28,233 bases of DNA, taken from positions 1 to 28,233 of the IMG/VR virus record IMGVR_UViG_3300017955_000003; one strand, 5' to 3'. The notes under the pieces are model-generated. The model had not been told where the DNA came from, made no database searches, and was given only the letters and a program-made list of their open reading frames with translations. Shown in pieces: positions 249-27,678 of this stretch. Origin of the DNA: a virus (Duplodnaviria; Caudoviricetes). Position 1 is the stretch's first letter; the number at the start of each line of letters is the position of its first letter. The position numbers and the translations under genes are program-made.

Positions 249-680
249 CTAACCGAGGTCAGTCAGATTCGGAAGATGATTCCAGATGCCGAGATACTTG
301 TGGTGTCGGACGCAGGTGTGGCCTCCCCGCTTGGCGGTGTTGCAGGGTCGGCAGAGGAACTGGAAATTGCTAGGATTCCCGAGATACTGACGCATCGTGA
401 GTTGCGAGTTCCTGTCCCATCGCGGGAGAGGAGACGGCGCTACGTGGTCTAGCTCGACAGGCGTTGCTCCGCAACAAACACAAATCTTCCCCGTGTAGAT
501 TCTGGCTTTCGTCTTTGCATACCAAGTCTTCATCCCCGCGTTCCGAGCCGCTCGATACTCTGGTGTGCGCTGGTAGTCCTTGAGATGCTCCTGATTCTTC
601 GCCGCCCATTGATACCAGTAATTCCGTTTCTTCTCAGGAGTCAGATATGTCCCATTGGGACCGCCGCGTGGTCGTGGCAT
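249..680 (-). CDS. HNH endonuclease (free-standing, homing type)
   Basis: CVCCG...ELDHV...NFQFLCRPCNTAK motif, basic helical N-terminus, and its own TTTAATA box at 704-710. Confidence 0.85.
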   Translation of the reverse strand: MPRPRGGPNGTYLTPEKKRNYWYQWAAKNQEHLKDYQRTPEYRAARNAGMKTWYAKTKARIYTGKICVCCGATPVELDHVAPSPLPRWDRNSQLTMRQYLGNPSNFQFLCRPCNTAKRGGHTCVRHHKYLGIWNHLPNLTDLG

Positions 681-2578: not shown

Positions 2579-2697
2579 CAACCCCTCACGGCAACCCCCG
2601 CAAGTATCCACCAGTCGAGTGCCCCAAGTGCGGCGAGAAGGTCGGCGCGTCCTATCTGCCGAGGCACATGAAGAGGGAGCATCCTTCCGATGCCTGA
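2575..2697 (+). CDS. 40-aa C2H2 zinc-finger protein
   Basis: TTG start overlaps the previous TGA. Sequence VECPKCGEKVGASYLPRHMKREH. Confidence 0.7.
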   Translation: MTTPHGNPRKYPPVECPKCGEKVGASYLPRHMKREHPSDA

Positions 2698-3286
2698 TAG
2701 ATTCCACGACAAGATATGCGCCATCTGCTACAAGACCTTCACTCCGACTGGGCATAACCAGAAGTTCTGTCGTAGGTGTATGAACTGGCACGACCCAGAG
2801 CACAGGCGTCAATATCGCAAAAACTACCACGAGGCTCACAGGCCGAGGGCGAAATGGATTGCCAGACGATACAACCAAAAGAAGAAGGAAATCGTCATCC
2901 AGCACTATTCGCCCGACAAGGTGTGTGTGCGTTGTGGATTCTCCGACATGAGGGCGTTGTCCATCGACCACATCAACGGAGGTGGGGTTAAGCATCTGAT
3001 ACAACTCTTCGGTGCCAAGAGAGGCGGGAGAATCTTCTACGAATGGCTAATCGAGAACAATTTCCCCGAGGGGTTCCGAGTTCTCTGTCTGAACTGCCAG
3101 TTCATCGTGATGGCGGAGAAAACTGAAGCCCAACTACAGGAAGGAAGCATCAAAAGAAAAGAGGTTCGGGGTAGGTTCGTTCTTCGAGCGGGGTCTTCAT
3201 CCAAGTCTTGTCAGGAACAAACATCTGATAATCCGACCAGCTCTCGTCAATATGAATATCCTTCACAGCAAGAGCAAGAGCCGTAA
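2690..3286 (+). CDS. HNH-type endonuclease with N-terminal Zn finger
   Basis: CAIC...CRRC, CVRCG...LSIDHINGGG...VLCLNCQ. Overlaps the terminase nuclease 3' end convergently. Confidence 0.8.
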   Translation: MPDRFHDKICAICYKTFTPTGHNQKFCRRCMNWHDPEHRRQYRKNYHEAHRPRAKWIARRYNQKKKEIVIQHYSPDKVCVRCGFSDMRALSIDHINGGGVKHLIQLFGAKRGGRIFYEWLIENNFPEGFRVLCLNCQFIVMAEKTEAQLQEGSIKRKEVRGRFVLRAGSSSKSCQEQTSDNPTSSRQYEYPSQQEQEP

Positions 3287-3821
3287 ATAAATCGTCGTGC
3301 ATTCCCGTCTTGAATATCTCAATCTCTGGGTTCGACATGTCCTCCCTCACCACCTTGGCCTGAACTTGTTTCATCTCGGTTATCAACTCTGAAAGGGTGC
3401 GGTTGTAGACTTCATCCCCCTTGCGGCGGGCGAACTTCAGCCTCCCGAAAGCATGGAGCACCTTCACCTTGCCGACAAGCTCCCGCTTCCTCTGGTTGGT
3501 GAACACGAAGGGCTCGACCCTAGCGTCAGGTAGGAGCGTTTGGAGATACTTGGCTGGCTCAGAACCTACCCCTGTGGCGTCAGCCGCGAACGTGGTCACG
3601 GTGCCGTTCCATGAGCCGTCCTCGTCCGTGTGGGTCGAAACCACCGACTTGTAGAGCCCCACCACAGTCTCCACCACTGTAGGGTAGCCAGTCCCGAGAG
3701 GATACTTCACGAGGGCCTTCACCACGGCCTTCTCGCCGACCTCGACCAAGCAGAGCGCACTATGGTCTTGGCGCTGTCCGAAGTCCAATCCGATTCTGAA
3801 ATCCCGCTCTCGGGCGCTCAA
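3150..3821 (-). CDS. terL: terminase large subunit, RNase H-like nuclease domain (separate gene)
   Basis: IGLDFGQRQDHSAL, ADATGVG and HDDLFTALALA acidic motifs. TTG start overlaps the TGA of the ATPase gene. Confidence 0.85.
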   Translation of the reverse strand: MSARERDFRIGLDFGQRQDHSALCLVEVGEKAVVKALVKYPLGTGYPTVVETVVGLYKSVVSTHTDEDGSWNGTVTTFAADATGVGSEPAKYLQTLLPDARVEPFVFTNQRKRELVGKVKVLHAFGRLKFARRKGDEVYNRTLSELITEMKQVQAKVVREDMSNPEIEIFKTGMHDDLFTALALAVKDIHIDESWSDYQMFVPDKTWMKTPLEERTYPEPLFF

Positions 3822-4699
3822 ATCAGTTCCACGTCTCCCTTGGGGCCTATGACCTTCTGAATCTGCTCCATCTGGGCTGAAAAGACGTTCTCGTTCTCGT
3901 CGATGGAGTCCTTGAGGGCCTGCTCCGGGAACAGGGAAGAGACATCGTCCAAGAAGATGCACTCATACTCTTGGTTCACGAAGGCGTCGCCATACAACTG
4001 CCGTCTCTCCTGGATGCGCTCCTTGCTGATGCGGGGGCAGTCGGCCCAAGTCACCCTGAAGTGCCTGTAGCGCGGGTTCGTCTTCCACTCCCTGCAGAAG
4101 AAGCCGTCTGTCCCGTTAGGCGTGGATGCGAGAATCAACTGCCCCTGAGAGACCTCCATCATGGGGTCTATCGCCACAAACACCTCGTCGTCCACCCACC
4201 CAGCTTCGTCGATTATCACCAGAGTAGGTGCCGAAAAGCCTCTGACCTTCTCGTTGGCGGGCAGGGCTATGATTCTTGAGTGGTTGGCGAACTCCAGCGA
4301 GGTCAGGTTCTCCGTGAGCAGGTTGCAGGTCAGGGAGCCTCCGTATTTCTTCCTGAGATACTTGTCGTAGCCCCTCACCAGCTCCCGCACCTTGCGCAAG
4401 TCCTCGTTCGACTGTCGCTGTTCAGCCACTATCAGCACCAGGCAGTTCTCGTTCACTAGGGCCGTCCACAGGGCCTTCACCGCTAGGATGCTACTCTTCC
4501 CTGATTGGCGCGAGCAGTTGAGGATGGCGAACCGCTCGCTGAACTTCAGGACCTCTCGCTGCCAGCCGTCTATATTCTTCCAGCGCCAACTCTCAAGAGT
4601 CACCCTAGCCGCAAAGAGTTCGGGGTCAGCAAGAACCATCTGTTCTCGCTCAATCGGCGTCAAATCGGCTTTTCCTCCTGCCCTTCTTGGTCGGCGCAC
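3818..4699 (-). CDS. terL: terminase large subunit, ATPase domain
   Basis: Q-motif WQ, Walker A SRQSGKS, Walker B LVIIDEA, motif III ASTPNG, and QEYECIF. Confidence 0.92.
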   Translation of the reverse strand: MRRPRRAGGKADLTPIEREQMVLADPELFAARVTLESWRWKNIDGWQREVLKFSERFAILNCSRQSGKSSILAVKALWTALVNENCLVLIVAEQRQSNEDLRKVRELVRGYDKYLRKKYGGSLTCNLLTENLTSLEFANHSRIIALPANEKVRGFSAPTLVIIDEAGWVDDEVFVAIDPMMEVSQGQLILASTPNGTDGFFCREWKTNPRYRHFRVTWADCPRISKERIQERRQLYGDAFVNQEYECIFLDDVSSLFPEQALKDSIDENENVFSAQMEQIQKVIGPKGDVELI

Positions 4700-4904
4700 C
4701 CACGGCTATGTCCTCGGTCTGGTAGCCCTGCTGATGCAGTTGGTGAAGGCCCTTCTCAAGCAACTCCGTGAACCCGAGCAGTTGGTTCCTCAGCTTCAGC
4801 CTGATTTCCGGCTCCGCGTCGGCCATCTCAGCCTCGACCGCCTTGATGTTCTGGTTGCAGTATGCTACGAGCTTAGCGGGATTGTCGATAAGTTCTGCCA
4901 TCAT
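4650..4904 (-). CDS. probable terminase small subunit
   Basis: Small helical protein immediately upstream of terL. Call rests on position only. Confidence 0.45.
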   Translation of the reverse strand: MMAELIDNPAKLVAYCNQNIKAVEAEMADAEPEIRLKLRNQLLGFTELLEKGLHQLHQQGYQTEDIAVGAPTKKGRRKSRFDAD

Positions 4905-5352
4905 CTATCCACCTCCTTGCGCCACGCTCGTATTCATAGATTATGTTGCAGTTAGCGCATCTCAAATCCACATCGTCTGTTGTCCGCGTTCCTAAGACTA
5001 TCCCGCGATAGATATGGGTGCTCCCAATTCGCTTCAACTCCTTCAGCCCACCTCCGTTCTTATGATTGACTTGAAGCACTCTAGGGTCGGTCATTCCACA
5101 GGCTACACACTTGCCGCCAAGTTTCGCTATCACCGCCAATTTCAGACGAACTTTGGATGCAGTTTGGATGGTGCTGTAGCGTTTGAGGTCCAAATGCCTC
5201 AGCGCATGATTGTATGCCGTATTCAGTCGTCTACATTCAGCACAACCATTCTCCCGCTTGTTGTGATTGGGACAGTGGTGTGGTAGCCCTGTCTTGCTCC
5301 AACGCGCTCCCTTCGCACCGCCATACTGGGGCGTTCCTTTCGCTCTAGCCAT
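4873..5352 (-). CDS. HNH-type endonuclease
   Basis: LGGKCVACG...LQVNHKNGGG...LRCANCN, same family as 2690-3286. Confidence 0.8.
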   Translation of the reverse strand: MARAKGTPQYGGAKGARWSKTGLPHHCPNHNKRENGCAECRRLNTAYNHALRHLDLKRYSTIQTASKVRLKLAVIAKLGGKCVACGMTDPRVLQVNHKNGGGLKELKRIGSTHIYRGIVLGTRTTDDVDLRCANCNIIYEYERGARRWIDDGRTYRQSR

Positions 5353-5380
5353 TGACGACCCCACAGAGTCATCAACAAGC

Positions 5381-5635: not shown

Positions 5636-5854
5636 TCAATCAGTTCGGCGGCCAACTATGGCACAACTCCCGCAGATGAGAGGCTTCTCAGGGCCACAGT
5701 AATCGTCGTCAGTCTGGAAATACATCTTCGTCTTGTGGCAGATGCTACATTCATGGTGATGGAGAAGCGGATGGTTTTCGGGGCACTTTTGAAACGCCTC
5801 TTGCGCGTCGGGATAGAATCTCTCGCATTTCTGGCAATATCCATCTTCTACCAT
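5636..5854 (-). CDS. small Cys-rich Zn-binding protein
   Basis: CQKC, CPENH, CSIC and CGSC motifs. Coupled to the GT4 stop. Confidence 0.65.
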   Translation of the reverse strand: MVEDGYCQKCERFYPDAQEAFQKCPENHPLLHHHECSICHKTKMYFQTDDDYCGPEKPLICGSCAIVGRRTD

Positions 5855-6951
5855 CTACATCCCCTCTGCACAGACTTAAGCGTCTTTTCCAGCCGTTGCG
5901 CTATCGGACCTCGGGCAAACCTCTCAGCACTCGCACGGCAAACAGCAGGGTCGAATCGGACAGTCCCGTCCATCACCTCGGTCACCCGCTTCACGGCCTC
6001 GTCGATGTTCTTGATGATGAACCCTGTCACGCCGTCCTGAATTGTGTCAGAAAAGCCCCAGCTATCAGCCGCAATCACTGGAGTCCCAGCCGCGAGCGAC
6101 TCGACAGCCTGCATCCCGAAGACCTCCTGATAGCCCCCATCGACGAAGCAGAGCGTCGCCTTGGCGTTCTGGAGCAACTTGACCCTCTCAGCATCACTGA
6201 CTAGCCCATGATAGACCACGTTCGCGCTCTTGGCACAGCGTTGCTTGACCATGTTGACATATCCTTGGTCTGGAACCAGCGTGGAATCGTCCCCAGCGAC
6301 ATCTCCCTTGGCCTTCGTCTTCTCGCAGACATCCAAGAAGTAGTGTATCCCCTTGGTGGGCATGACCCTGTTGAGCGACAGCAGCCTCTCCGACTTGTCC
6401 CTCTGCATCGGGATTGCGTCTACATCGACGGGGTTCCACTGTGTCCTCACGGGGATGTGCAACTGCTGGGACAGGAACCTAGAATGAGCATGAGACACTC
6501 CAAGGAACAGGGGGAAGTCACGCGGAGGCTTGACGTTGTAGCTTTTGACCGAGTGGTTCACCCCGAGGATTTCGTCCTTCTTGCTGGTGTAGCTCCACTT
6601 GGCCCACGAGGCGTCCAAGACGGCGTCGAACTCTGGGAGCCTGTCCCTGTAGAAGCCATAAGCCTCTTCCTCGGCGCTTCGCCAGCCGTTCCAAACTCTA
6701 TCTGCTTTCGCATAGCTCTGCCTCTGTGCGTCGTTCAGCTTGTTCCACGGCTCCACGGTCTTAATCATGGAGACGCCCTCGGGAGGCTCGGAGTCCTTGG
6801 TGGCTACCAGCGTGACATCGTGGCCTAACTCATGGAGGCCCTTAGCCTCCTCATAGACGACCCGTTCTAGTCCTGCGGGTAGGTTTGCCTACTCTCCGTA
6901 GCTAGTCGGGGGCGTCCTGAGGGCCATGCTACTGATTAGCAGTAGCTTCAA
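5848..6951 (-). CDS. GT4 (GT-B) glycosyltransferase, 360 aa after removal of a 21-nt intron
   Basis: TTG 6951 gives MKLLLISSMALRTPPTSYG|GLERVVYEEAKGLHELGHDVTLVA. The C-terminal part has RVMPTKG and EVFGMQAVESLAAGTPVI. Confidence 0.88.
6873..6893 (-). other. BHB-type micro-intron (21 nt) in mRNA
   Basis: AGTAGGCAAACCTACCCGCAG contains an in-frame TAG and a GTAGG/CCTAC stem. Removing it restores YGGLE. Confidence 0.8.
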
Positions 6952-7477
6952 GGGGAACCGCCTTTAGGTTCTGAAGGTCTCCGAGTGTGAGTTCTTCGCA
7001 TCCTGATTCATACGGGGACTTGATGATGTATTTATCCAATCGAGGACGGATATAGAGGACGCGCCACAAGAGGCCCAAATCCTCAGCAAGCCTGAGATGC
7101 CACCTGTGCGAGTCTTGGTGAGTTCGCATGGTTATCTGGAATACCCAGACTTGACTCGACTCGTTCTCCGCCCGAATGTCGAAAGGGCTGGTCTTGAAGT
7201 AGTCTAGCCGTCTGACATTATGATAGCCCTCGGCTTCGAGAACCTTGACAGCGACCTTCTCAGAGTCTACCCAATGTAGATTCCGCCATGTCCCCTTCTC
7301 TCCACCGACAACGCCCCAGAGCCGTTGAATCTCTCTCCTGCGGGCTAGCCTATGGTCGTGCGTGTTCTCTGCTAGGTGAGCTTTGTTCTTCTCGTAGTAG
7401 TCCTTGGCGTAGACCTTGTGTTCCTCTCGGTGAGCGTCACGGTAGCGTTTGTCTCCAGCCTTCTTGTCGTATGGCAC
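6929..7477 (-). CDS. PD-(D/E)XK-like endonuclease with homing-type basic N-terminal arm
   Basis: SEKVAVKVLEAEGY...PFDIRAE...VFQIT. Own TATA-like box at 7500-7507. Confidence 0.6.
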   Translation of the reverse strand: MPYDKKAGDKRYRDAHREEHKVYAKDYYEKNKAHLAENTHDHRLARRREIQRLWGVVGGEKGTWRNLHWVDSEKVAVKVLEAEGYHNVRRLDYFKTSPFDIRAENESSQVWVFQITMRTHQDSHRWHLRLAEDLGLLWRVLYIRPRLDKYIIKSPYESGCEELTLGDLQNLKAVPLEATANQ

Positions 7478-7552
7478 ACCACACTCTCTAACCCTCCACT
7501 AAATTAACCCTTATCTATTGAGTGTGACAAGGGTAAGGAGGTGGATGAAACT

Positions 7553-7717
7553 ATGAACTGCCCCAAGTGCGGTCGGCCTCATAGGTGCGGGGCTATTCGG
7601 TTCAAGTCGTGGAAACACCTGACTCCCCATCAATGCCGAATCTGTGGATTCCAATGGGCAGAGATTGACGGACAGATGCTGGACGCAGGAACTCGGTTGC
7701 CTCTAATCGTAGTATAG
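7553..7717 (+). CDS. 54-aa Zn-ribbon protein
   Basis: MNCPKCGRPH...HQCRICGFQW with a GGAGGTGG RBS. Not in the ORF track. Confidence 0.65.
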   Translation: MNCPKCGRPHRCGAIRFKSWKHLTPHQCRICGFQWAEIDGQMLDAGTRLPLIVV

Positions 7718-7736
7718 TCTCAAAACGTCAGCCTCC

Positions 7737-8234
7737 TCACTTGGTGCCCGTCTGCCCAGCAGGAGCGGAGCTTGGCGCTGTCTCTGAGTTCGATGTCGAT
7801 GGACTCGGTGTCACAGCGGAAGTGGACTGCCCTCTCTGTAGTGCGGCGCGCTTCTGCTTGCGGCGCTCCTTGCTGTCCAGCTTCGGGACTGGGACTGACG
7901 ACATGATTGCCCTTGGCTCGCCTCTTACGGCTTCTATGCTCAACCAAGACCAGCCACCCGACTCGATGGAGCGGAGGATATAGGTTTCCCAGCCGGCGGC
8001 TTCGAGGTGCTCCACCAAGAGGTCGGCGTCGTAGAACCGCTTATGTGAGGGATTTTTCATCGGGGCCAGTTGAGGGGGCCAGTTCCACTCGTTAGGAACC
8101 ACTATGACCAGCCTTCCGGTAGTGACGGCCTTCAAATCCGCAACAGGGTCGTCGGACTTCTGCAAAAGTTCATCGGAGATGGTCATGTCTACTTGGTTCG
8201 CAAATTGCCCGAGATACTGCTCTTTTGGAGTCAT
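7737..8234 (-). CDS. methyltransferase-like fragment protein
   Basis: ELLQKSDDPVADLK...GRLVIVVPN...HKRFYD resembles the C-terminal half of class I SAM methyltransferases. No GxGxG motif. Confidence 0.5.
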   Translation of the reverse strand: MTPKEQYLGQFANQVDMTISDELLQKSDDPVADLKAVTTGRLVIVVPNEWNWPPQLAPMKNPSHKRFYDADLLVEHLEAAGWETYILRSIESGGWSWLSIEAVRGEPRAIMSSVPVPKLDSKERRKQKRAALQRGQSTSAVTPSPSTSNSETAPSSAPAGQTGTK

Positions 8235-8686
8235 TTCTTGTGCTCATAATACCATCGTAGTTCTTTCTCACGTTTGCAAGTCAAACATTCTCTATATCCC
8301 CGCCTCAACTGGAAGAGAACCAAGTTATCCCCTGCAAGCGGATGCCCTCTCGGACAATGAGTCTTTTCCGTATTGAGTTTTGTGACATTCTCGCTCAACA
8401 GGTTGTGTTCCTTCGGTGTGACTGGTTGGAGATGGTCGGGGTTCACACATGGGGGGTTGTGACAAAGATGATGGAGGTCTTTGCCTTCGGGAATCGGCCC
8501 CTTGACGAGTTCGTAAGCCACTCTATGAGCACCGTGCAATCTCACTCTGCCGCCCTCCCATGTCCCGAATAGTCCGTATCCTGCCGTGTCCAGCGACGCC
8601 GTCCAAAGCCAACATCCTTCCGTCTTTCTTACCTTCGGCCAGAACCTCTCGGAGAGCGATTTGTGGGGGTAGATTCCTCTGGGCAT
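8231..8686 (-). CDS. HNH homing endonuclease (phage HNH_3 type)
   Basis: ERFWPKV...CWLW...GYG...AHRVAYELVKGPIP...HHLCHNPPCVNPDHL...N and KTHCPRGH. Confidence 0.92.
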   Translation of the reverse strand: MPRGIYPHKSLSERFWPKVRKTEGCWLWTASLDTAGYGLFGTWEGGRVRLHGAHRVAYELVKGPIPEGKDLHHLCHNPPCVNPDHLQPVTPKEHNLLSENVTKLNTEKTHCPRGHPLAGDNLVLFQLRRGYRECLTCKREKELRWYYEHKK

Positions 8687-8725
8687 CGACTATGGGCATA
8701 TCAGCATAGGTCTTAACCTTTTGTA

Positions 8726-8804
8726 TGGTCAGCGTCTCGTTGAGGACGGTGATGTCGGCCTGTCCCTCGAACTGCTTCAACCAGAGAGTCTTGGGGTCGC
8801 TCAA
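8726..8804 (-). pseudogene. orphaned original 5' end of the 7737-8234 gene
   Basis: TTG 8804 gives MSDPKTLWLKQFEGQADITVLNETLT, which aligns with MTPKEQYLGQFANQVDMTISDELLQ. Confidence 0.6.
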
Positions 8805-9034
8805 TTCTGCCACCAATGTTTCTTCTTGGCTGGCGTCTGCGCCGAAGCAACAGTATAGAGATACGAGTTGGTTTCAAGTATCCAGACATGACCATTGCCG
8901 CAGAGCATTGAATGAGTTCCATCCTTCCGAGCTACGCTATTGACTCCATCAGGTGTCCAAGAGACAAGCCTCGCGGTTATCGGATTCGGTCCAGCCCCAC
9001 ATTTGGGACAGACAAGAGAGTAATGTTGGCTCAA
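8801..9034 (-). CDS. small Zn-ribbon protein
   Basis: CPKCG...CGNGHVW, with coupled starts and stops. Confidence 0.65.
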   Translation of the reverse strand: MSQHYSLVCPKCGAGPNPITARLVSWTPDGVNSVARKDGTHSMLCGNGHVWILETNSYLYTVASAQTPAKKKHWWQN

Positions 9035-10089
9035 CTGTTAGCCACCCTGATTACCTCGTCTACTTGAGCATCCGACATCGAATTGAAGATGGGAAGCATC
9101 ACGGCGCGGGAGAAGATGTTGACGGCGTTGAGATTGAAGTTTAGCGGGTAGTCTTGGTCAAACGGGTCTTGGAGATGGATTGGTCGCCATGCCTGCCTCG
9201 CGTCAACCCCTGCGGCCTCGAACTTCTTGACTAGCGCAACCCACTCGGTCAAATCCTTCGTCAGCCCAATCATCGTCCAGTAGGCATGTCGGGTCACATA
9301 GTCAGGAACCCTCTGGAACGTCAACCCTGCAATCTCCTTGCGATACCTCGCTGCAATCTCGTTCCTGCGCTTCAGGCTCTCCTCAAGGCGCGACAACTGG
9401 ACAAGCCCTATCGCTGATGCAATATCGGTCGTGCGGAAGTTCATGCCGATTTCCGAATGGACGTAGCGTTCCTTGGTTCTGCCATAGTCGCTGATGCGTC
9501 GGCACTTCTCGATGAGTTCCGCGTCCTTGGAAGCTATCGCGCCCCCCTCGACGGTGCTCAACTGCTTGGTGGCTTGGAAGCTGAAGATGGTGAGATTCTT
9601 GGTAGAGCCAACCTTGCGACCGTCTGCTTCAGCCCCTAACGCTTCTGCGGCATCTTCGATAATCCATACCGCGTAGTCATCCTGAGGAACTGGCAATCCA
9701 GCCACATCGGTCACTATCGACCACGGAACTGTCGGCTTCGTCCTGTCGTATGCCTTGGCGAAATCATCGCCCACATTGAACGTCTCTGGGTCTGCATCTA
9801 CAGGGACAATCTTACACCCCAAGATGGCTGGAACCGAAGCCGTAGCGACAAAGGTGAAATCAGGAACCAGCACGGTGTCCCCAGCCTTGACCCCGTTCGC
9901 TAGGAGCGCCACCATGAGAGCGGCAGACCCTGAGTTGACCAAGGCGATGTTGCTGTGGAGATAGTCAGCCAAGGCGTCCTCAAACCGCTGCGAAACCTTC
10001 CCCTTGCTGGGCCAGCCCGAATCCAAAACGGCTCTCACGGCCTGCTTCTCCTCCTCGCTGACGGTCAAATCGCTGAAGGGAACTCTCAT
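9031..10089 (-). CDS. DegT/DnrJ/EryC1/StrS PLP-dependent sugar aminotransferase
   Basis: VNSGSAAL, FTFVATA, IIEDAAEALG, FSFQATKQLSTVEGG (PLP lysine) and GMNFR. Confidence 0.93.
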   Translation of the reverse strand: MRVPFSDLTVSEEEKQAVRAVLDSGWPSKGKVSQRFEDALADYLHSNIALVNSGSAALMVALLANGVKAGDTVLVPDFTFVATASVPAILGCKIVPVDADPETFNVGDDFAKAYDRTKPTVPWSIVTDVAGLPVPQDDYAVWIIEDAAEALGAEADGRKVGSTKNLTIFSFQATKQLSTVEGGAIASKDAELIEKCRRISDYGRTKERYVHSEIGMNFRTTDIASAIGLVQLSRLEESLKRRNEIAARYRKEIAGLTFQRVPDYVTRHAYWTMIGLTKDLTEWVALVKKFEAAGVDARQAWRPIHLQDPFDQDYPLNFNLNAVNIFSRAVMLPIFNSMSDAQVDEVIRVANS

Positions 10090-10229
10090 TTCTTCTCTTC
10101 CTTCCATCTCCTTACAATCCTTCCTGTCTCGGTGCTAATCTCCGATGTCTCATTCATGTGGAAAAGAGACTCCCGAATTATATTGAAAGCAAACCTGAGT
10201 TCTGGCACGACCCTAGAGAGAACCCTCAT
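10086..10229 (-). CDS. 47-aa hypothetical protein
   Basis: ATGA overlaps at both ends and it fills the gap exactly. Confidence 0.55.
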   Translation of the reverse strand: MRVLSRVVPELRFAFNIIRESLFHMNETSEISTETGRIVRRWKEEKK

Positions 10230-10795
10230 CTCAGAAACAACGCCCACGAGTCCACCTCAAGCGGCACATCGTCCAGCCACTCCTGCTTCTTGAACACCGC
10301 TTCGAGCTGGAACCCGCAACTCCTGTATAGCTTGATGGCGGCGAAATTGTCCGAGTAGCATTGGAGGTAAATCTTCCGCATCCCCCGCTTCTTGGCCTCC
10401 GTCAGCATCACGGCCATCAGCATCGAGCCGACTCCGTGGTGTTGGTATTCATCCTTGACGACGATGCCGAGCGAACAAGTCCATTTCTGGGTCGGCCTGT
10501 GCGGGGAGAACCTTAGGAACCCATAGCCCACAATCTCTGAATATACTGCCCCAGACTGACCGCTTGCATCTCTGAACGAAAAGTTCTCAACGGCAACCCA
10601 TCCCTGCTCCTCGTCCGGCTCCCTGCTGATGAGGCTGGTCTGGAGGTCGGCCATCGCCCTCGCGGCTGGCTCCCTGTTGACTGGGCCCAAGCGACCGTTG
10701 AAGCGATTGAACTGGGTTATCGTCTCATCGCTCAAGCTCAAGAAAAAGGCGTGGAGCGCGTCCCTGTCGGTCGTCTCAAGCTCGCGGACTATCAC
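10226..10795 (-). CDS. GNAT-family N-acetyltransferase
   Basis: LGIVVKDEYQHHGVGSML...DNFAAIKLYRSCGF. GTG 10795 overlaps the upstream TGA. Confidence 0.9.
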   Translation of the reverse strand: MIVRELETTDRDALHAFFLSLSDETITQFNRFNGRLGPVNREPAARAMADLQTSLISREPDEEQGWVAVENFSFRDASGQSGAVYSEIVGYGFLRFSPHRPTQKWTCSLGIVVKDEYQHHGVGSMLMAVMLTEAKKRGMRKIYLQCYSDNFAAIKLYRSCGFQLEAVFKKQEWLDDVPLEVDSWALFLR

Positions 10796-10944
10796 TTGAC
10801 TACACCATGTGTCACGATTGCGTTCTCTCTCCACCACTTGTCTAACTTCTCAAACGCGGAGTTGGCCTTCTCTTGTGATGTGAAAGCCTCGACAGAATGA
10901 TACGAATAGTCGTCGCCTCGTAATATCAGCAACCAAACCTCCAT
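10792..10944 (-). CDS. 50-aa hypothetical protein
   Basis: MEVWLLILRGDDYSYHSVEAFTSQEKA..., fills the operon gap. Confidence 0.55.
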   Translation of the reverse strand: MEVWLLILRGDDYSYHSVEAFTSQEKANSAFEKLDKWWRENAIVTHGVVK

Positions 10945-10946
10945 TT

Positions 10947-11945
10947 CTATGCCCATCTCATCCCCTCCGCAATCTCACGGTAGAACGCCTCATATTTGGG
11001 TATGCGAGAATCCACGCTCCAATCCACGGGACTCGGCTGAAACCATTGATTCACCGTCTTCATGGCCTCCAAGAACTCGGGCACCGACCCCACGCAACGG
11101 GTTATCCCCAGCGACGGCAACGCTCCCCTTGAGTAGCTTATCATGGGCGTGTGACACTGGGCCGCTTCGATAGCCACTAGGTTGTGCGCCTCGTCGAACT
11201 GGAGCGGATACAAGATTGCTACCGCATCCTGAATCAGCCTAATCTTCTCGTCCTCGGTGACGTTGAACCTGATGCTGATGTCGTCGCTCTCGTGCTTCCG
11301 CAGGTCTTCAAGGTAGCGCATGTCGTCAGTCGCAAGCAACCCACCAACAACGTCCAGCTTCGCTCCGCAAGCCTTTGCCAGCGAGATAGCCTCCATCGCC
11401 CCCTTGTTCGGGGTCAGCTTCCCCAAGAAGAGGAACCGCTCCCTGAGGGGCTCGTTCACTGGATGATACTTGCGACCGTCCACATAGCCCCAGCTTGGGA
11501 AGACCTTGGCCTCCTGCGAATACATGTGCCTGAACCTCTCCGCCTGCCACTCGCTCACACAGCAGATGTTGAAACGGGACTTGTTGTAGCGGGTCACGAC
11601 GGGGTCCCACACCATGAAGCAGGCTGGCAGCTTCTCACTGGCGTAAGCCTCGTCCACCCCGAGAGCGTGACCATGTGAGAAGTCGTGGATGGCGTCGTAA
11701 GGCCCAGCCTGCTCGAACCAGAGCCGCCTCATCGCAATATCATCCCTGTCCTGCTCCTGAGGCAGCTTCACGGTGGGGAGCAGTTTGACGCCCTGAGGCG
11801 GTTCGCTACCGATGGGAGCGGCAATATCGACGGAATGACCAGCCCGCTTGAGAGCCCCAGCAAGCGTCGCGGCCATTAGCTCGACTCCGCCATACCTATT
11901 CTCGCCTATCGGGACAACTGAAGTGCTGACGATGAGGAGCTTCAT
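10947..11945 (-). CDS. GT4 (GT-B) glycosyltransferase
   Basis: RYGGVE...GHSVDI, FLGKLTPNKG and EAHNLVAIEA. Confidence 0.9.
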   Translation of the reverse strand: MKLLIVSTSVVPIGENRYGGVELMAATLAGALKRAGHSVDIAAPIGSEPPQGVKLLPTVKLPQEQDRDDIAMRRLWFEQAGPYDAIHDFSHGHALGVDEAYASEKLPACFMVWDPVVTRYNKSRFNICCVSEWQAERFRHMYSQEAKVFPSWGYVDGRKYHPVNEPLRERFLFLGKLTPNKGAMEAISLAKACGAKLDVVGGLLATDDMRYLEDLRKHESDDISIRFNVTEDEKIRLIQDAVAILYPLQFDEAHNLVAIEAAQCHTPMISYSRGALPSLGITRCVGSVPEFLEAMKTVNQWFQPSPVDWSVDSRIPKYEAFYREIAEGMRWA

Positions 11946-12668
11946 CTAGGTTCCCATGAACTCAATCGAAAGCGAGTTGTTCCCGCTGGGGGCAAAGCGC
12001 ACAGGACCTAGGTGGCGTCCCGCTAGGCTCGTATCGCAATAGCTCGGGATTCCTTGCCTCGCCGCCCTCATGCAGAAGCTGAAGTCCTCACTCGCCGATT
12101 CGTTGGGGTTGAGCGAGCGCCACTCCGTCCACAGGAACCAAGCAGGTCTGCCAAGCACACCGTCAATCGCTATCTGGAACGGCTTCAACTGCTCGAAGAG
12201 GTCCATCCTGAGGAGCATCCCTCCAGTAGCTACAGCGTCGCACTTCACCAGTTCACCGGGCTGGTATTCGCCGTCCCTGATGGGCTGGAGTCCGGGGTTG
12301 CCGTCCTGTCGGAACTTGAGCATCTCGTTGAAAGGCGGGTTGTGCCTCCTCACATACAAGCCCGAGGTTATCATCTGGTTGTGCGCCATCAAGCGCGGTA
12401 GAACGTCGGGGGGCCACATGAGGTCCGTGTCGCAAAACCAAAGCCAGCGGGCGCCCATCTGGATAGCCGTCTGGACCGCCTTGTCCCGTGAGACATCCAC
12501 CACGGGCTCGGGGAACCTCATGCGGGCGACCTTCATGCCCTGAGGGACGTTCTGGATTATCTGGTTCATGCGTTCGCTCCACTCGTAGGGCACCTGCTCC
12601 CAGCCCGAGATGGCGTGAGCAATCAGGATGTCGTTGACTTGGTTAGCCCGCTCCCACGACCCGCTGAT
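11946..12668 (-). CDS. GT-A (GT2-like) glycosyltransferase, probable ATC start
   Basis: SRDKAV, WFCDTD (DxD), ATGGMLLR and SEDFSFC. The first beta strand (DILIAH) lies upstream of the first canonical start at 12593. Confidence 0.8.
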   Translation of the reverse strand: MSGSWERANQVNDILIAHAISGWEQVPYEWSERMNQIIQNVPQGMKVARMRFPEPVVDVSRDKAVQTAIQMGARWLWFCDTDLMWPPDVLPRLMAHNQMITSGLYVRRHNPPFNEMLKFRQDGNPGLQPIRDGEYQPGELVKCDAVATGGMLLRMDLFEQLKPFQIAIDGVLGRPAWFLWTEWRSLNPNESASEDFSFCMRAARQGIPSYCDTSLAGRHLGPVRFAPSGNNSLSIEFMGT

Positions 12669-12904: not shown

Positions 12905-13645
12905 CTAGCGATTGAATCTCTTGAGCCTGAGGGGGCCGGAGTGCTGGAAGAACGAGGGAGCGGCGGCTGAAGCGGCTTGGATGGCGTCGCCAGCGAGAAT
13001 CCACAGACTGCCAGCGGCGGTAGACCCGCTCACGAACGACACGGGGGCGCTGGTCTGGGCAGACGACACTATGAGATACTCCGTGGCGGCGCTCCCTCCG
13101 GATGTCTGGCCCGATGTCTGGCTCAGTTGCGTCCAGCCGCTCGCGTGGTAGCCCCATCCGCTGTAGGCGGCTGTCGCCATGAACGCGAGAAGGATGTCGT
13201 TCGCGTTCGTGGTGGACACGACCCCGCTCTGGGCGGCCCCTTGGACAGAGCCCGTTCCGCTCAGGGTCAGCGGGATGGAGGCGTTGCCGTCGAACGGCGA
13301 CGAAGTGTTGGCGCCGGCCACGCTGACCACGGCGAGGTAGGCGTAGTTCTTGCTGCCGCTGTTGCTGAAGCTGCCGACCGTGATGTTGGCGTTGCTGAGG
13401 GTGGACGCGGCTATCCCGTAGAACGACCGCCCGAGGATGCCGCCCTGCCCGAAGATGGGTATGCGCTGCGTCCATGTCAGGCCGCCCCCGCTGATGGCGA
13501 CCGTCCCGGAGTAGGTCTGCCCCACCCAGACGTAGACTATGTCGTTGGAGTTCGCCGTGGAGATGCCGCTGACGGTGAGCCCCGATACCTCCGACGCGCT
13601 TGACACGTTGATGGCGAACCCGCTGACCTCTATCGAGAGCGGCAT
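12905..13645 (-). CDS. Ser/Gly/Ala-rich beta-strand virion or adhesin-like protein
   Basis: Amino-acid composition and strong codon bias. Confidence 0.7.
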   Translation of the reverse strand: MPLSIEVSGFAINVSSASEVSGLTVSGISTANSNDIVYVWVGQTYSGTVAISGGGLTWTQRIPIFGQGGILGRSFYGIAASTLSNANITVGSFSNSGSKNYAYLAVVSVAGANTSSPFDGNASIPLTLSGTGSVQGAAQSGVVSTTNANDILLAFMATAAYSGWGYHASGWTQLSQTSGQTSGGSAATEYLIVSSAQTSAPVSFVSGSTAAGSLWILAGDAIQAASAAAPSFFQHSGPLRLKRFNR

Positions 13646-13648
13646 GGC

Positions 13649-15031
13649 CTAGCTCAGATACCTTTCAATCCAGTCAACCGACGCCATGCCGACGCCTATA
13701 CCCGAGGTCATTATGGCGAGGAAGTCCTGTCCGCTCGTCACCTGCGGGTTCTGCATCCTCCACGAGTTGAAGTCGAAGGCGTAGTTGTGCATGTAGCCCG
13801 ACGAGTTCGCCTCCAAGTATAGGCTCTCGATGGGCGTGACACCGCTCCACGCCCCCGACACCATGCCGGAACTCGAAATCACGAAGCCCGAGGCGATGCT
13901 GACGGCGTTGCCGCTGTAGTAGGGGACTATCGTTCCCTTGGGGCCGCTCATCTGGACCACCGAGTTGTCGGTCCTGTAGAGGTCCAAGCGGTTGATGTTG
14001 CCGGAGGCGTATATCCCCACCTCGATTCTGGTTATCTCCAAGACCATGCCCGACTGCCCCGCCGCGACGCCGCTCCCGTAGTTCGAGAGCCCGAACAGCC
14101 CCACGCCCGCAGGCCCCGACCAGAACACGGTCATCGTGTAGCTCGGCCATTCCCTCGGCGTGACGAGCCCCGAGAGGTCGTTGACCGCGCCCGAGGTCAC
14201 ATAGACGTTCCCCGAAGTGATGGAAACAGTCCCGCTTACAGTGACACCTCCCGAAATCGTTAGACCTCCGCCGGAGATGCCCACCAGCCCCGAAACGGTG
14301 ACGCCGCCAGAGATTGTGATGCCGCCGCCCGAAAGCGCGAACAGCGTGTTGGAGATGGCTACCGTCCCAGAGACTTGAACCCCGCCGCTGACAGTCACCC
14401 CCCCTGTTATCGGGAGTGTCCCGCCTGAAATCACGGCGACTATCCCGGAGACAGGAAGGGGCTGCCCCGACAGGGTCGATACTATGACATCGGCCACCCC
14501 CGATGTGGTGACAATCACATTCCCAGAGACTAGGAGCGTCCCGCCCGACGCCACAAGGACCAAGTTCCCAGAGACGCTGACGGGGAGCCCAGAAATCCCA
14601 GCGAACCCTCCAGAGAGGATGACCATCGTTCCCGATTGGAGCCCGAATGGATTGACCGTCGTGGTGACTGGGAGCCCAGAGATGCCGGCAAATCCACCCG
14701 ACAGGGCGACCAAGGTTCCAGATTGATATGCGGGAGGCGAGACGCTGACCGAAGCGGTGACGGGCAGGCCGGAGATTCCAGCAAAGCCCCCAGAGAGCAT
14801 CACATACTGGCCTGACTGCGGCGAAGGCGGCGTGAAGCTCGCGGAGACGACCCCGCCGGAGATGTTGACGTTGAGCGACGTGTTGCCGTCAGAGCCCGAG
14901 AAGATGGTCACAGGCTGGACTTGGCCGGAGCCGTAGACACCGACAGGCAGGGGCTCAAGATAGAGCGTCCGACCCGTGGGCGCCCAGCCGCTCGCCTGAG
15001 TGACTGCGCCGCTAGAGGTTCCGAGAGCCAT
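13649..15031 (-). CDS. Ser-Gly repeat fibre-like virion protein
   Basis: About 45 SG dipeptides in 460 aa, three copies of QSGxxVxLSGGFAGISGLPV, and 6-7 aa xxVSG periodicity. Confidence 0.75.
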   Translation of the reverse strand: MALGTSSGAVTQASGWAPTGRTLYLEPLPVGVYGSGQVQPVTIFSGSDGNTSLNVNISGGVVSASFTPPSPQSGQYVMLSGGFAGISGLPVTASVSVSPPAYQSGTLVALSGGFAGISGLPVTTTVNPFGLQSGTMVILSGGFAGISGLPVSVSGNLVLVASGGTLLVSGNVIVTTSGVADVIVSTLSGQPLPVSGIVAVISGGTLPITGGVTVSGGVQVSGTVAISNTLFALSGGGITISGGVTVSGLVGISGGGLTISGGVTVSGTVSITSGNVYVTSGAVNDLSGLVTPREWPSYTMTVFWSGPAGVGLFGLSNYGSGVAAGQSGMVLEITRIEVGIYASGNINRLDLYRTDNSVVQMSGPKGTIVPYYSGNAVSIASGFVISSSGMVSGAWSGVTPIESLYLEANSSGYMHNYAFDFNSWRMQNPQVTSGQDFLAIMTSGIGVGMASVDWIERYLS

Positions 15032-17379: not shown

Positions 17380-18318
17380 ATGTCAATTTCAGTAGGGCAG
17401 CTAGTCACGACGCAGACAGAGTTCGCCTACCCTGAACTCTCCACGAGGATAATCCAGGCCGTCTTCCCTGCCAACATCTTCGTCAACACCCTCACCTACT
17501 ACTCAATCGCAGACAGGCAGGTCCCAGCGGTCACGTTCGCGCTTCAGAACATCCCCACCTCGCAGCCCACGATACTGCCCATCGGTGAGTCAGAGGACAT
17601 CCCCGTGGACATGACCCCATACAGCAAGTCAACCGTGACTCCGCAGTTCTGGGGCGACTCAATCAGGATTCCAAGAACAGTGACGGAAGACCTCCAGCTA
17701 CCAGTGATGCAGGACTACCTCCAGCGCATCACCTACAAGACCCAATACACCAGGGACAAGCATGTGGAACAGACGCTCAACGCGGCTCTCTCGTCCACGG
17801 CCCACGCCGCAGGAACCAGCAACTTCGTAGGCTTCACAGGGACAGGCTTCGACCTCGCCAACGTCTTCTCGCAACTGGACATCAGGACGTGCAAGGCCAA
17901 CGTAGAGAAGGACCCCAACAACTACCTCATCTCAGACCTAATCTTCAACGCCATCAACGCGGCAGACCTCATCAGGATTCCGAACTACGTCTCAGCCTTC
18001 TACTACGGACGAACCAATGTCGGTGTGCAGGGAGCCCTCCAGCAAGCAACGGCACCAATCGGACTGCTTCACGGCTACAACGTCTGGGTCAGCAACGTCG
18101 CCACCGCAGGGACCGTCTACGCTCTGGCAGCCAACGGCGCCAACGTCAACAACATGTATTCCCCGCTAGGGTTCTTCGTGGAGAAGCGCCCCCCGACTGC
18201 GGAGTCAATCTTCTGGCCCTCGACCGACGAGTTCAGGGTCTTCATCACCACGAGGTTCAAGGCTTACGTCGCAAGGTCTCAGGCTGGGTATATGATAACC
18301 AGTCTCGCCACGAGCTAG
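17380..18318 (+). CDS. major capsid protein (HK97 fold)
   Basis: 312 aa, IGESEDIP, WGDSIRIPRTVTED and IGLLHGYNVWVSN motifs, synteny and strong codon bias. Confidence 0.85.
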   Translation: MSISVGQLVTTQTEFAYPELSTRIIQAVFPANIFVNTLTYYSIADRQVPAVTFALQNIPTSQPTILPIGESEDIPVDMTPYSKSTVTPQFWGDSIRIPRTVTEDLQLPVMQDYLQRITYKTQYTRDKHVEQTLNAALSSTAHAAGTSNFVGFTGTGFDLANVFSQLDIRTCKANVEKDPNNYLISDLIFNAINAADLIRIPNYVSAFYYGRTNVGVQGALQQATAPIGLLHGYNVWVSNVATAGTVYALAANGANVNNMYSPLGFFVEKRPPTAESIFWPSTDEFRVFITTRFKAYVARSQAGYMITSLATS

Positions 18319-27120: not shown

Positions 27121-27678
27121 ATGCCACTCCAATCATTCGGAAACTTCACATTCACCAGCGGGGTCAACCTCACCAAGATAGGCGGACTCATCTGTAAGCG
27201 ATGTGGAAAAGAAACTGAACGGCATAGCAATCATCAGTTGCATTGTCCAGACTGCAAGAAGGCTATCGCCTGTGAGAGAACCAGACTATGGCGACTCGCT
27301 CATCTCGAACAAGCAAAAGAGCAAGTCAAGAAATGGACAAGAGAGCATCCAGAGCGAATACAAGAGATGCATCGCAAGTCGCGCCTAGCACACCCAGAAC
27401 CACAGTGGCTGAAGGCAAGACGCTATCGTGCATGGGCAAAGGCGCATCCCAACACAATCAGATACTATGAAAGCAAACGCAAGGCCAAGCGACGCGGTAT
27501 GCCGATACGATTCACTCTCAATTCGTGGTTTCCCAATTCGCATCTCCACCACCTAGAGACGAACATCGGCATCTACATCCCGAACACTCTACATGATTCG
27601 GTTCGTCACAACCTTCGGACTGGCAAAGGCATGGTTCAAATCAACGAAGCCGCCGCAGGATGGTTGGGGAGTCGATAG
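27121..27678 (+). CDS. HNH-like endonuclease fused to the first 22 codons of the downstream tail gene
   Basis: CKRCG...CPDC, a basic arm, and HLHHL...IYIPNTLHDSVRH. Confidence 0.7.
   Translation: MPLQSFGNFTFTSGVNLTKIGGLICKRCGKETERHSNHQLHCPDCKKAIACERTRLWRLAHLEQAKEQVKKWTREHPERIQEMHRKSRLAHPEPQWLKARRYRAWAKAHPNTIRYYESKRKAKRRGMPIRFTLNSWFPNSHLHHLETNIGIYIPNTLHDSVRHNLRTGKGMVQINEAAAGWLGSR

Follow-up and report, generated by a model that had tools for sequence, protein, structure and literature searches.

How a virus can use a glycosyltransferase (GT4) gene whose conserved N-terminal motif is broken by a short stop-bearing insert, and why such an insert should be kept, are the questions raised by this locus. 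The gene lies on the minus strand of the window, the 28,233-nucleotide stretch of viral DNA analysed here, which belongs to the 45,964-bp genome of a tailed virus (G001; CheckV estimate 100%) and departs from the sequence of that record by six single-position differences, all outside the insert. The answer we favour, with a probability of roughly three in four, is that the insert is a tRNA-type intron cut by the host and kept because it would block the target of a homing endonuclease predicted to be encoded directly upstream.

Translation of the minus-strand frame from a TTG at 6951, the start indicated by alignment to homologues, gives MKLLLISSMALRTPPTSYGE, then a stop, then ANLPAGLERV. The initial annotation of this DNA had described a YGG-LE motif interrupted by 21 nucleotides with an in-frame TAG, and this description holds: the TAG is at 6891-6889, within an insert (6873..6893, minus strand) that separates a 58-nt exon 1 (6894..6951, minus strand) from exon 2 (5848..6872, minus strand), which ends at a TAG where the homologues end and carries the Pfam domain PF00534 (66.5 bits against a cut-off of 26.4). 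The boundaries predicted from the bulge rule proved equally sound, since deletion of 6893-6873 restores YGGLE, as do two equivalent registers 1-2 nt upstream, while the remaining 10 of the 13 deletion registers tried do not. A paralogous GT4 (10947..11945, minus strand), used for comparison only, has the intact YGGVE that had been attributed to it and lacks the insert. Thirty-six homologues were aligned, 28 of which span the site; as the proposed comparison with intronless homologues required, all 28 are gap-free at the motif and none has an insertion, the motif reading YGGLE in 27 and YSGLE in one. The best homologue is 360 residues long, that is 367 minus 7. After removal of the insert the gene presents the N-terminal YGG-loop motif, and PPxYGG[VL]E is conserved as far as the solved GT4 structures 8x3q and 7fg9. 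The insert is identical in three other assemblies (L002, L003 and L004) and, with zero differences, in contigs of five runs (X1-X5, which may include the window's own source; the site is uncovered in X6-X8), and therefore the assembly artefact that the initial annotation had considered is ruled out. A group I or group II intron or other Rfam RNA was likewise rejected, as 21 nt is too short for a ribozyme core and Rfam gave no match in the window, in the related locus L011, or in L106 and L107.

The bulge–helix–bulge (BHB) fold that had been proposed for the RNA was recovered in all its parts at 6867..6905 (minus strand throughout). The exon helix CUAG/CUAG pairs 6905-6900 with 6871-6867 and includes a further U-A pair; the central helix ACGG/CCGC (6899-6896 with 6878-6875) forms three of its four pairs, the fourth being an A.C mismatch; the bulges AGA and AGG occupy 6895-6893 and 6874-6872; and the inner stem GUAGG-CAAA-CCUAC pairs 6892-6888 with 6883-6879. 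When the insert was shuffled with its ends fixed, helix and stem (a central helix of at least three Watson–Crick pairs plus a 5-pair inner stem) were kept in 2 of 200,000 sequences, and among the 91,764 sites of length 21 in the 46-kb genome the full BHB pattern was found at the insert alone. A loose BHB pattern is frequent by chance (106 matches on the plus strand alone), so the support comes from the coincidence of the motif with boundaries defined by homology. In a control, the junction pattern matched 242 times across 239 viral loci, and a single one of these matches folds as a BHB, identical to that of the window. A strict scan of the 46-kb genome at lengths of 15-60 returned seven sites, the insert and six others. 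One of the six is a weaker BHB-like fold of 51 nt, possibly a chance occurrence, at window 13638-13688 (minus strand); it spans a TAG that separates two ORFs in one frame, 13649-15031 and 12905-13645, and its removal would fuse the two.

The 5′ bulge, central helix and inner stem are well populated, and the folds of lowest energy partly close the 3′ bulge; for the window, the strict 3-4-3 form lies 4.8 kcal/mol and a relaxed bulge–helix–loop form 2.2 kcal/mol above the minimum. The weight of this weakness depends on the host. P0002, to which the interrupted GT4 is most closely related (69%), is annotated as coming from a Nitrososphaerales archaeon and lies on a 15-kb contig, and the only NCBIfam models that the virus SSB matches are those of archaeal SSB and RPA, each with a score under the cut-off; from these two pieces of evidence, one annotated contig and the SSB, we infer an archaeal host, probably of the TACK group. 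In the available parts of the literature, EndA is described as cutting after the second base of each bulge, the introns of cbf5 as mostly unconventional BHB structures (PMC2738675), and the (αβ)2 EndA of TACK archaea as the broad-specificity type that cleaves relaxed motifs (PMC6379350, PMC5829648). With such a host the weakness of the fold would be tolerable, because cbf5 introns are themselves unconventional and the TACK enzyme accepts relaxed motifs. The virus genome gave no match to the EndA family PF01974, and no tRNA genes were found.

A scan of 62 of 64 parts of a metagenome collection gave 13 loci that cover the site besides the window virus, and one of them, L011, also has an insert. 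This second insert (L011 6059-6088) is 30 nt long, falls at the same base as that of the window and carries an in-frame TAG. At the homology-defined borders of both inserts a 4-bp central helix and two 3-nt bulges can form; L011 shares the AGA and AGG bulges, has a perfect central helix (4/4) and encloses an unrelated inner stem. Of the 14 pair positions compared between the two, seven are the same, six have changed on both sides and one on one side only, the last being the A.C of the window; this covariation comes from two sequences only. Shuffled L011 inserts reached the helix-plus-stem threshold in 7 of 200,000 cases. The structure is kept while its sequence changes, and may have arisen by convergence rather than descent. 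The exon helix has 5/5 pairs in each insert-bearing gene and 1-4/5 in the same register of 12 intronless loci, one of which (L008) forms six exon pairs if the register is left free. As in the window, the lowest-energy fold of L011 partly closes the 3′ bulge, with the strict form at +6.3 and the relaxed form at +0.8 kcal/mol. With at least 40 nt of flank the in-register exon helix falls below a probability of 0.1, its arms pairing in another register, and the central helix and most of the inner stem persist. Taken from the sequences and their predicted folds, the reading of the insert as a BHB mRNA intron spliced by the host is very probably correct, and this part of the initial annotation is supported.

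The two insert-bearing genes are not sisters. In a tree of exon 2 (39 rows) the window gene groups with the intronless P0002 (support 100/98) and L011 with the intronless L006 (100/100), and a single clade of window and L011 is rejected (AU p 5e-128, 21-row subset). Repeated invasion of the site, sideways transfer or many losses must therefore be invoked, and the tree fits all three. At the DNA level two insert-bearing lineages only were found. L011 and L006 are less alike in exon 1 (32 of 57 nt) and over the next 100 codons (52-78%) than beyond them (80-93%), a contrast tempered by the variability of the N-terminal part of GT4 across the whole family. When the genome and 22 loci were scanned by homology, the genes they share showed no other stop-bearing insert or frameshift, save for a deletion of roughly 140 nt with a frameshift in L008 (about 6116-6141), just past YGGLE, which represents either a broken gene or an assembly error.

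Gene callers shorten such genes: the call for the window GT4 is P0001, of 306 residues from the ATG at 6768, and P0018 is the corresponding truncated call for L011. Several other calls (P0015, P0122, P0124, P0126 and P0127) begin at the Leu directly past the insert site, and P0012 and P0123, nearly identical to them, are full length; the difference may be due to an insert polymorphism or to the choice of start codon. The N-truncated P0015, P0023, P0025, P0026, P0124, P0126 and P0127 could conceal further inserts, although unusual start codons or contig ends may equally account for them. P0130, the partner of P0022 in grouping, begins at the edge of a contig and corresponds to locus L016. The insert counts given here are made without the N-truncated calls, P0022 and P0130.

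The genome around the locus encodes a two-gene terminase, a portal and what is probably the major head protein, and a large set of sugar-modification genes (window 5848-12593 and G001 41412-44374), much of it common to related loci, that includes two GT4s, a DegT aminotransferase, a GNAT acetyltransferase, and GDP-mannose dehydratase-like and methyltransferase-like proteins. The two large terminase genes (window 3150-3962 and 3818-4699) are split likewise in relatives, and so the split is not an intron. The portal protein (G001 about 39490-39690; L107) has about 73 extra in-frame residues compared with L020. The probable major capsid protein (window 17380-18318) is highly conserved across 47 clusters, most of them 73-96% identical, and a close match to this family among named phages was not found. 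Scans of viral contigs with the GT4, the capsid protein and both nucleases described below returned this virus, one capsid relative or nothing; a phage collection gave distant terminases only, and a genome collection, of which 1 of 64 parts was covered with cellular archaea barely sampled, distant bacterial GT4s only. About six of the approximately 75 ORFs of the genome are nuclease-like, most of them judged by eye. Five are HNH-like (window 252-680, 2690-3286, 4873-5364, 8231-8686 and 27121-27678; one over the Pfam cut-off, one weak and three by eye), and several of these adjoin the terminase and portal genes.

What the initial annotation overlooked is the gene next to the insert. A free-standing ORF of 182 residues (6929..7477, minus strand) overlaps the GT4 start by 23 nt and is a candidate homing endonuclease with an Hjc-like PD-(D/E)XK fold. 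No Pfam family is matched above its cut-off (Mrr_cat reaches E 0.048), and the model of the protein (pLDDT 94) has no Foldseek match at E ≤ 0.001. The predicted fold is of the restriction-endonuclease type: the model matches Hjc with Z 9.7 (rmsd 3.2, 104 aligned) and a second Hjc with Z 8.9, the splicing-endonuclease subunit 2zyz_C with Z 8.7, tied with 1gef, and the homing endonuclease I-Ssp6803I with Z 8.4. E73 is found in 50 and D100 in all 52 of the 52 sequences compared, and both align with DNase residues of Hje; in place of ExK, position 114 is Q in 36, E in eight and D in five sequences, and position 116 is an invariant Thr that sits where Hje has its Lys. In L011 a different nuclease stands beside the insert gene. 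Its ORF of 246 residues (L011 5264-6004) abuts the CTG start of GT4, contains a Vsr/DUF559-type domain over the Pfam cut-offs for MTES_1575 and DUF559, and is unlike the window nuclease. A nuclease ORF lies directly upstream of the GT4 in both insert-bearing loci and in none of the 11 intronless loci that extend upstream of the gene (post hoc Fisher p 0.013; 0.015 when L005 and L009, which are one lineage, are merged), the call of adjacency being made partly by eye and L007 and L013 having less than 200 nt of upstream DNA. L006 shares about 5 kb of synteny with L011 and has neither nuclease nor insert. The presence of the intron is likely explained by this adjoining nuclease gene.

The nuclease family has further ties to the GT4 gene. 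A word search with the window nuclease found three other clusters (P0181/P0183, P0182 and P0180), the first of which starts with about 28 residues of a GT4 N-terminus ending in SGGLESV, fused in frame; a profile search gave 82 hits, and of these P0206 is a further protein that opens with the N-terminal part of a GT4. P0181, P0183 and P0182 come from contigs equal in size to those of the N-truncated GT4s P0025, P0131 and P0023 (1,977, 16,708 and 41,789), a correspondence that is circumstantial; among the contigs listed, none with GT4 equals in size that of P0180, P0206 or nine other nuclease relatives. It is possible that P0181, P0183 and P0206 are large nuclease-encoding introns in the GT4 gene. 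In the window itself, codons for SGGLESV lie just upstream of the nuclease start and out of frame with it (7480..7500, minus strand), matching the linker that fuses P0181 to its GT4 N-terminus. They are the sole occurrence of GG[LIV]E.[VI] in the six frames of the 46-kb genome, against 0.35 in each shuffled genome, and we read them as the relic of an insertion that entered a GT4 gene at its 5′ end. Together these sequence relationships make it rather likely that the insert protects the site that a free-standing homing endonuclease would cut, in a homing partnership.

The strongest competitor of this reading accepts the spliced BHB intron and treats it as a neutral passenger, the nuclease being there by coincidence or serving the virus as a Holliday-junction resolvase. 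The top fold matches of the nuclease, the archaeal resolvases Hjc and Hje, are what this would predict, the genome is rich in nuclease-like ORFs, and the pairing is known from two loci. It must however be set against two unrelated nucleases that each adjoin an insert gene and none that adjoins the 11 intronless ones, the lack of both elements in L006, the fusion of the nuclease family to GT4 N-termini on two occasions and the GGLESV relic just upstream of the nuclease start, and we consider it unlikely. Further from the evidence is the view that the insert is never spliced and is a scar that gives immunity at the DNA level, so that the gene is dead or yields only the 306-residue product from the ATG at 6768. 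Gene callers do give that product, and the 3′ bulge is absent from the lowest-energy fold. The 306-residue form would, however, begin 61 codons late and so miss the conserved motif of the N-terminus. Of the 19 residues of exon 1, moreover, 12-13 are retained, most of the changes being synonymous, and exon 2 is intact, without further break, and under purifying selection (dN/dS about 0.18 for window/L005 and about 0.09 for L011/L006), so that the interrupted gene looks alive; two different inserts also share one fold. On these grounds a scar is improbable.

Ribosomes might instead hop over the insert or read through it, in the manner of the bypass of T4 gene 60 that protects against MobA. Both inserts are multiples of three between in-frame GGA codons, with the TAG in a hairpin, and in the available portion of its description the MobA cassette has both repeated insertion and replacement by a Vsr nuclease (bioRxiv 2022.08.31.505936). 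Bypassing is disfavoured because a hop from GGA to GGA gives YGLE, one Gly fewer than 27 of the 28 homologues; in addition, the stop lies two to three codons past the take-off codon instead of adjacent to it. Readthrough would place seven or ten extra residues in the GG loop, and TAG terminates 14 of the 22 genes checked, including the interrupted GT4 and the capsid gene at the ends of their homologues, so that this virus uses TAG as an ordinary stop. Genome-wide recoding of TAG is rejected on the same count, and hopping or readthrough has very little to recommend it. The tie of 2zyz_C with 1gef among the top matches and the invariant Thr in place of the usual Lys could suggest that the upstream ORF is a virus splicing factor (an EndA-like subunit or a maturase) and not a DNase, an idea which is least credible of all given the lack of a PF01974 match in the genome, the alignment of the conserved Glu73 and Asp100 with Hje DNase residues, the Vsr-like DNase that partners L011 and the fold common to EndA and PD-(D/E)XK-type nucleases.

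We therefore return to a predicted intron that the host would cut out and that would protect its carrier. What is observed is an insert with an in-frame stop, the YGGLE regained once it is deleted where the BHB rule places the cuts, the second insert and the adjoining nuclease genes. In the proposed sequence of events host EndA would cleave both bulges, each behind its second base, and the exons would be joined by an RNA ligase, giving the 360-residue enzyme. In a co-infecting virus the upstream nuclease would cut intronless alleles near the YGGLE codons, and repair would copy nuclease and intron together, as in collaborative homing. The intron would render its carrier immune and leave the protein unchanged. 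With somewhat less assurance, at odds only a little better than even, we extend this to a two-part selfish cassette in which interchangeable endonucleases target the YGGLE codons and micro-introns spliced by the tRNA enzyme of the host confer immunity, the nuclease family also occurring within genes (P0181 and P0206). If that is true, a single locus displays a path between mobile BHB introns that encode nucleases and bare micro-introns, and viral glycosylation depends on host EndA. The dependence of a viral gene on host tRNA splicing would offer a possible point of control, and a stop-bearing viral BHB insert that recurs at one base in two lineages that are not sisters, each time beside a nuclease gene, provides a small, testable model for the origin and spread of such introns.

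The origin of archaeal mRNA introns is called unclear in the portions of the literature available, in which those shown are only the introns of cbf5 and one in a Haloferax 5′ UTR (PMC7714728). Our literature search, of incomplete coverage and with supplements excluded, found neither a demonstrated BHB intron in the mRNA of an archaeal virus nor a BHB collaborative-homing pair, and the available part of bioRxiv 2026.10.13.758758 does not mention mRNA, viruses or homing. The initial annotation had named cbf5 as the main archaeal case. The cbf5 introns of Desulfurococcales and Sulfolobales are 16-44 nt long and lie between codon bases 1 and 2, and resemble the present inserts in these respects and in their position at a conserved motif, their often unconventional BHB, the cut after the second bulge base and their variable interior; they differ in being cellular, gained once in an ancestor and of demonstrated splicing, with no partner nuclease described in the sections available (PMC2738675). 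The inserts described here are in contrast viral, occur in two non-sister lineages beside nuclease genes and are predicted to be spliced. In Haloferax HVO_1309 a BHB intron likewise makes an mRNA a substrate of EndA, but it lies in the untranslated region (5′ UTR) of a cellular gene, as far as the available text describes it (PMC7714728). The precedent that the annotation missed is the rudivirus SIRV1, whose putative 12-bp introns (Peng et al. 2004, cited in PMC2738675) are also small inserts in coding genes of an archaeal virus. In the accessible part of that source their splicing is undemonstrated and they are possibly tolerated in frame (PMC2738675), whereas the inserts described here carry stops and so require removal.

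As a partnership, the locus is closest to systems of bacteriophages. Collaborative homing has been described for F-CphI and the psbA group I intron of cyanophage S-PM2, for T3/T7-like phages and for the ICP1 terminase, and in the parts of these accounts available a free-standing endonuclease gene adjoins a conserved gene that bears an intron thought to block self-cleavage; the introns are self-splicing group I ribozymes (PMC6083498, PMC10448857, PMC2988022), whereas here an insert of 21-30 nt in an archaeal virus is predicted to be spliced by a host enzyme. The cassette of T4 MobA and the gene 60 bypass offers a second likeness, in that an endonuclease has entered a conserved gene, protection comes from a short insert close to where the downstream portion begins, and insertion has recurred at one site, with the endonuclease swapped for a Vsr type; as described in the portion available, its insert is bypassed by ribosomal hopping and not removed by RNA splicing (bioRxiv 10.1101/2022.08.31.505936). 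By analogy with both, we infer that the pair proposed here would work like phage collaborative homing and the T4 MobA/bypass cassette, but with the tRNA enzyme of the host removing the insert.
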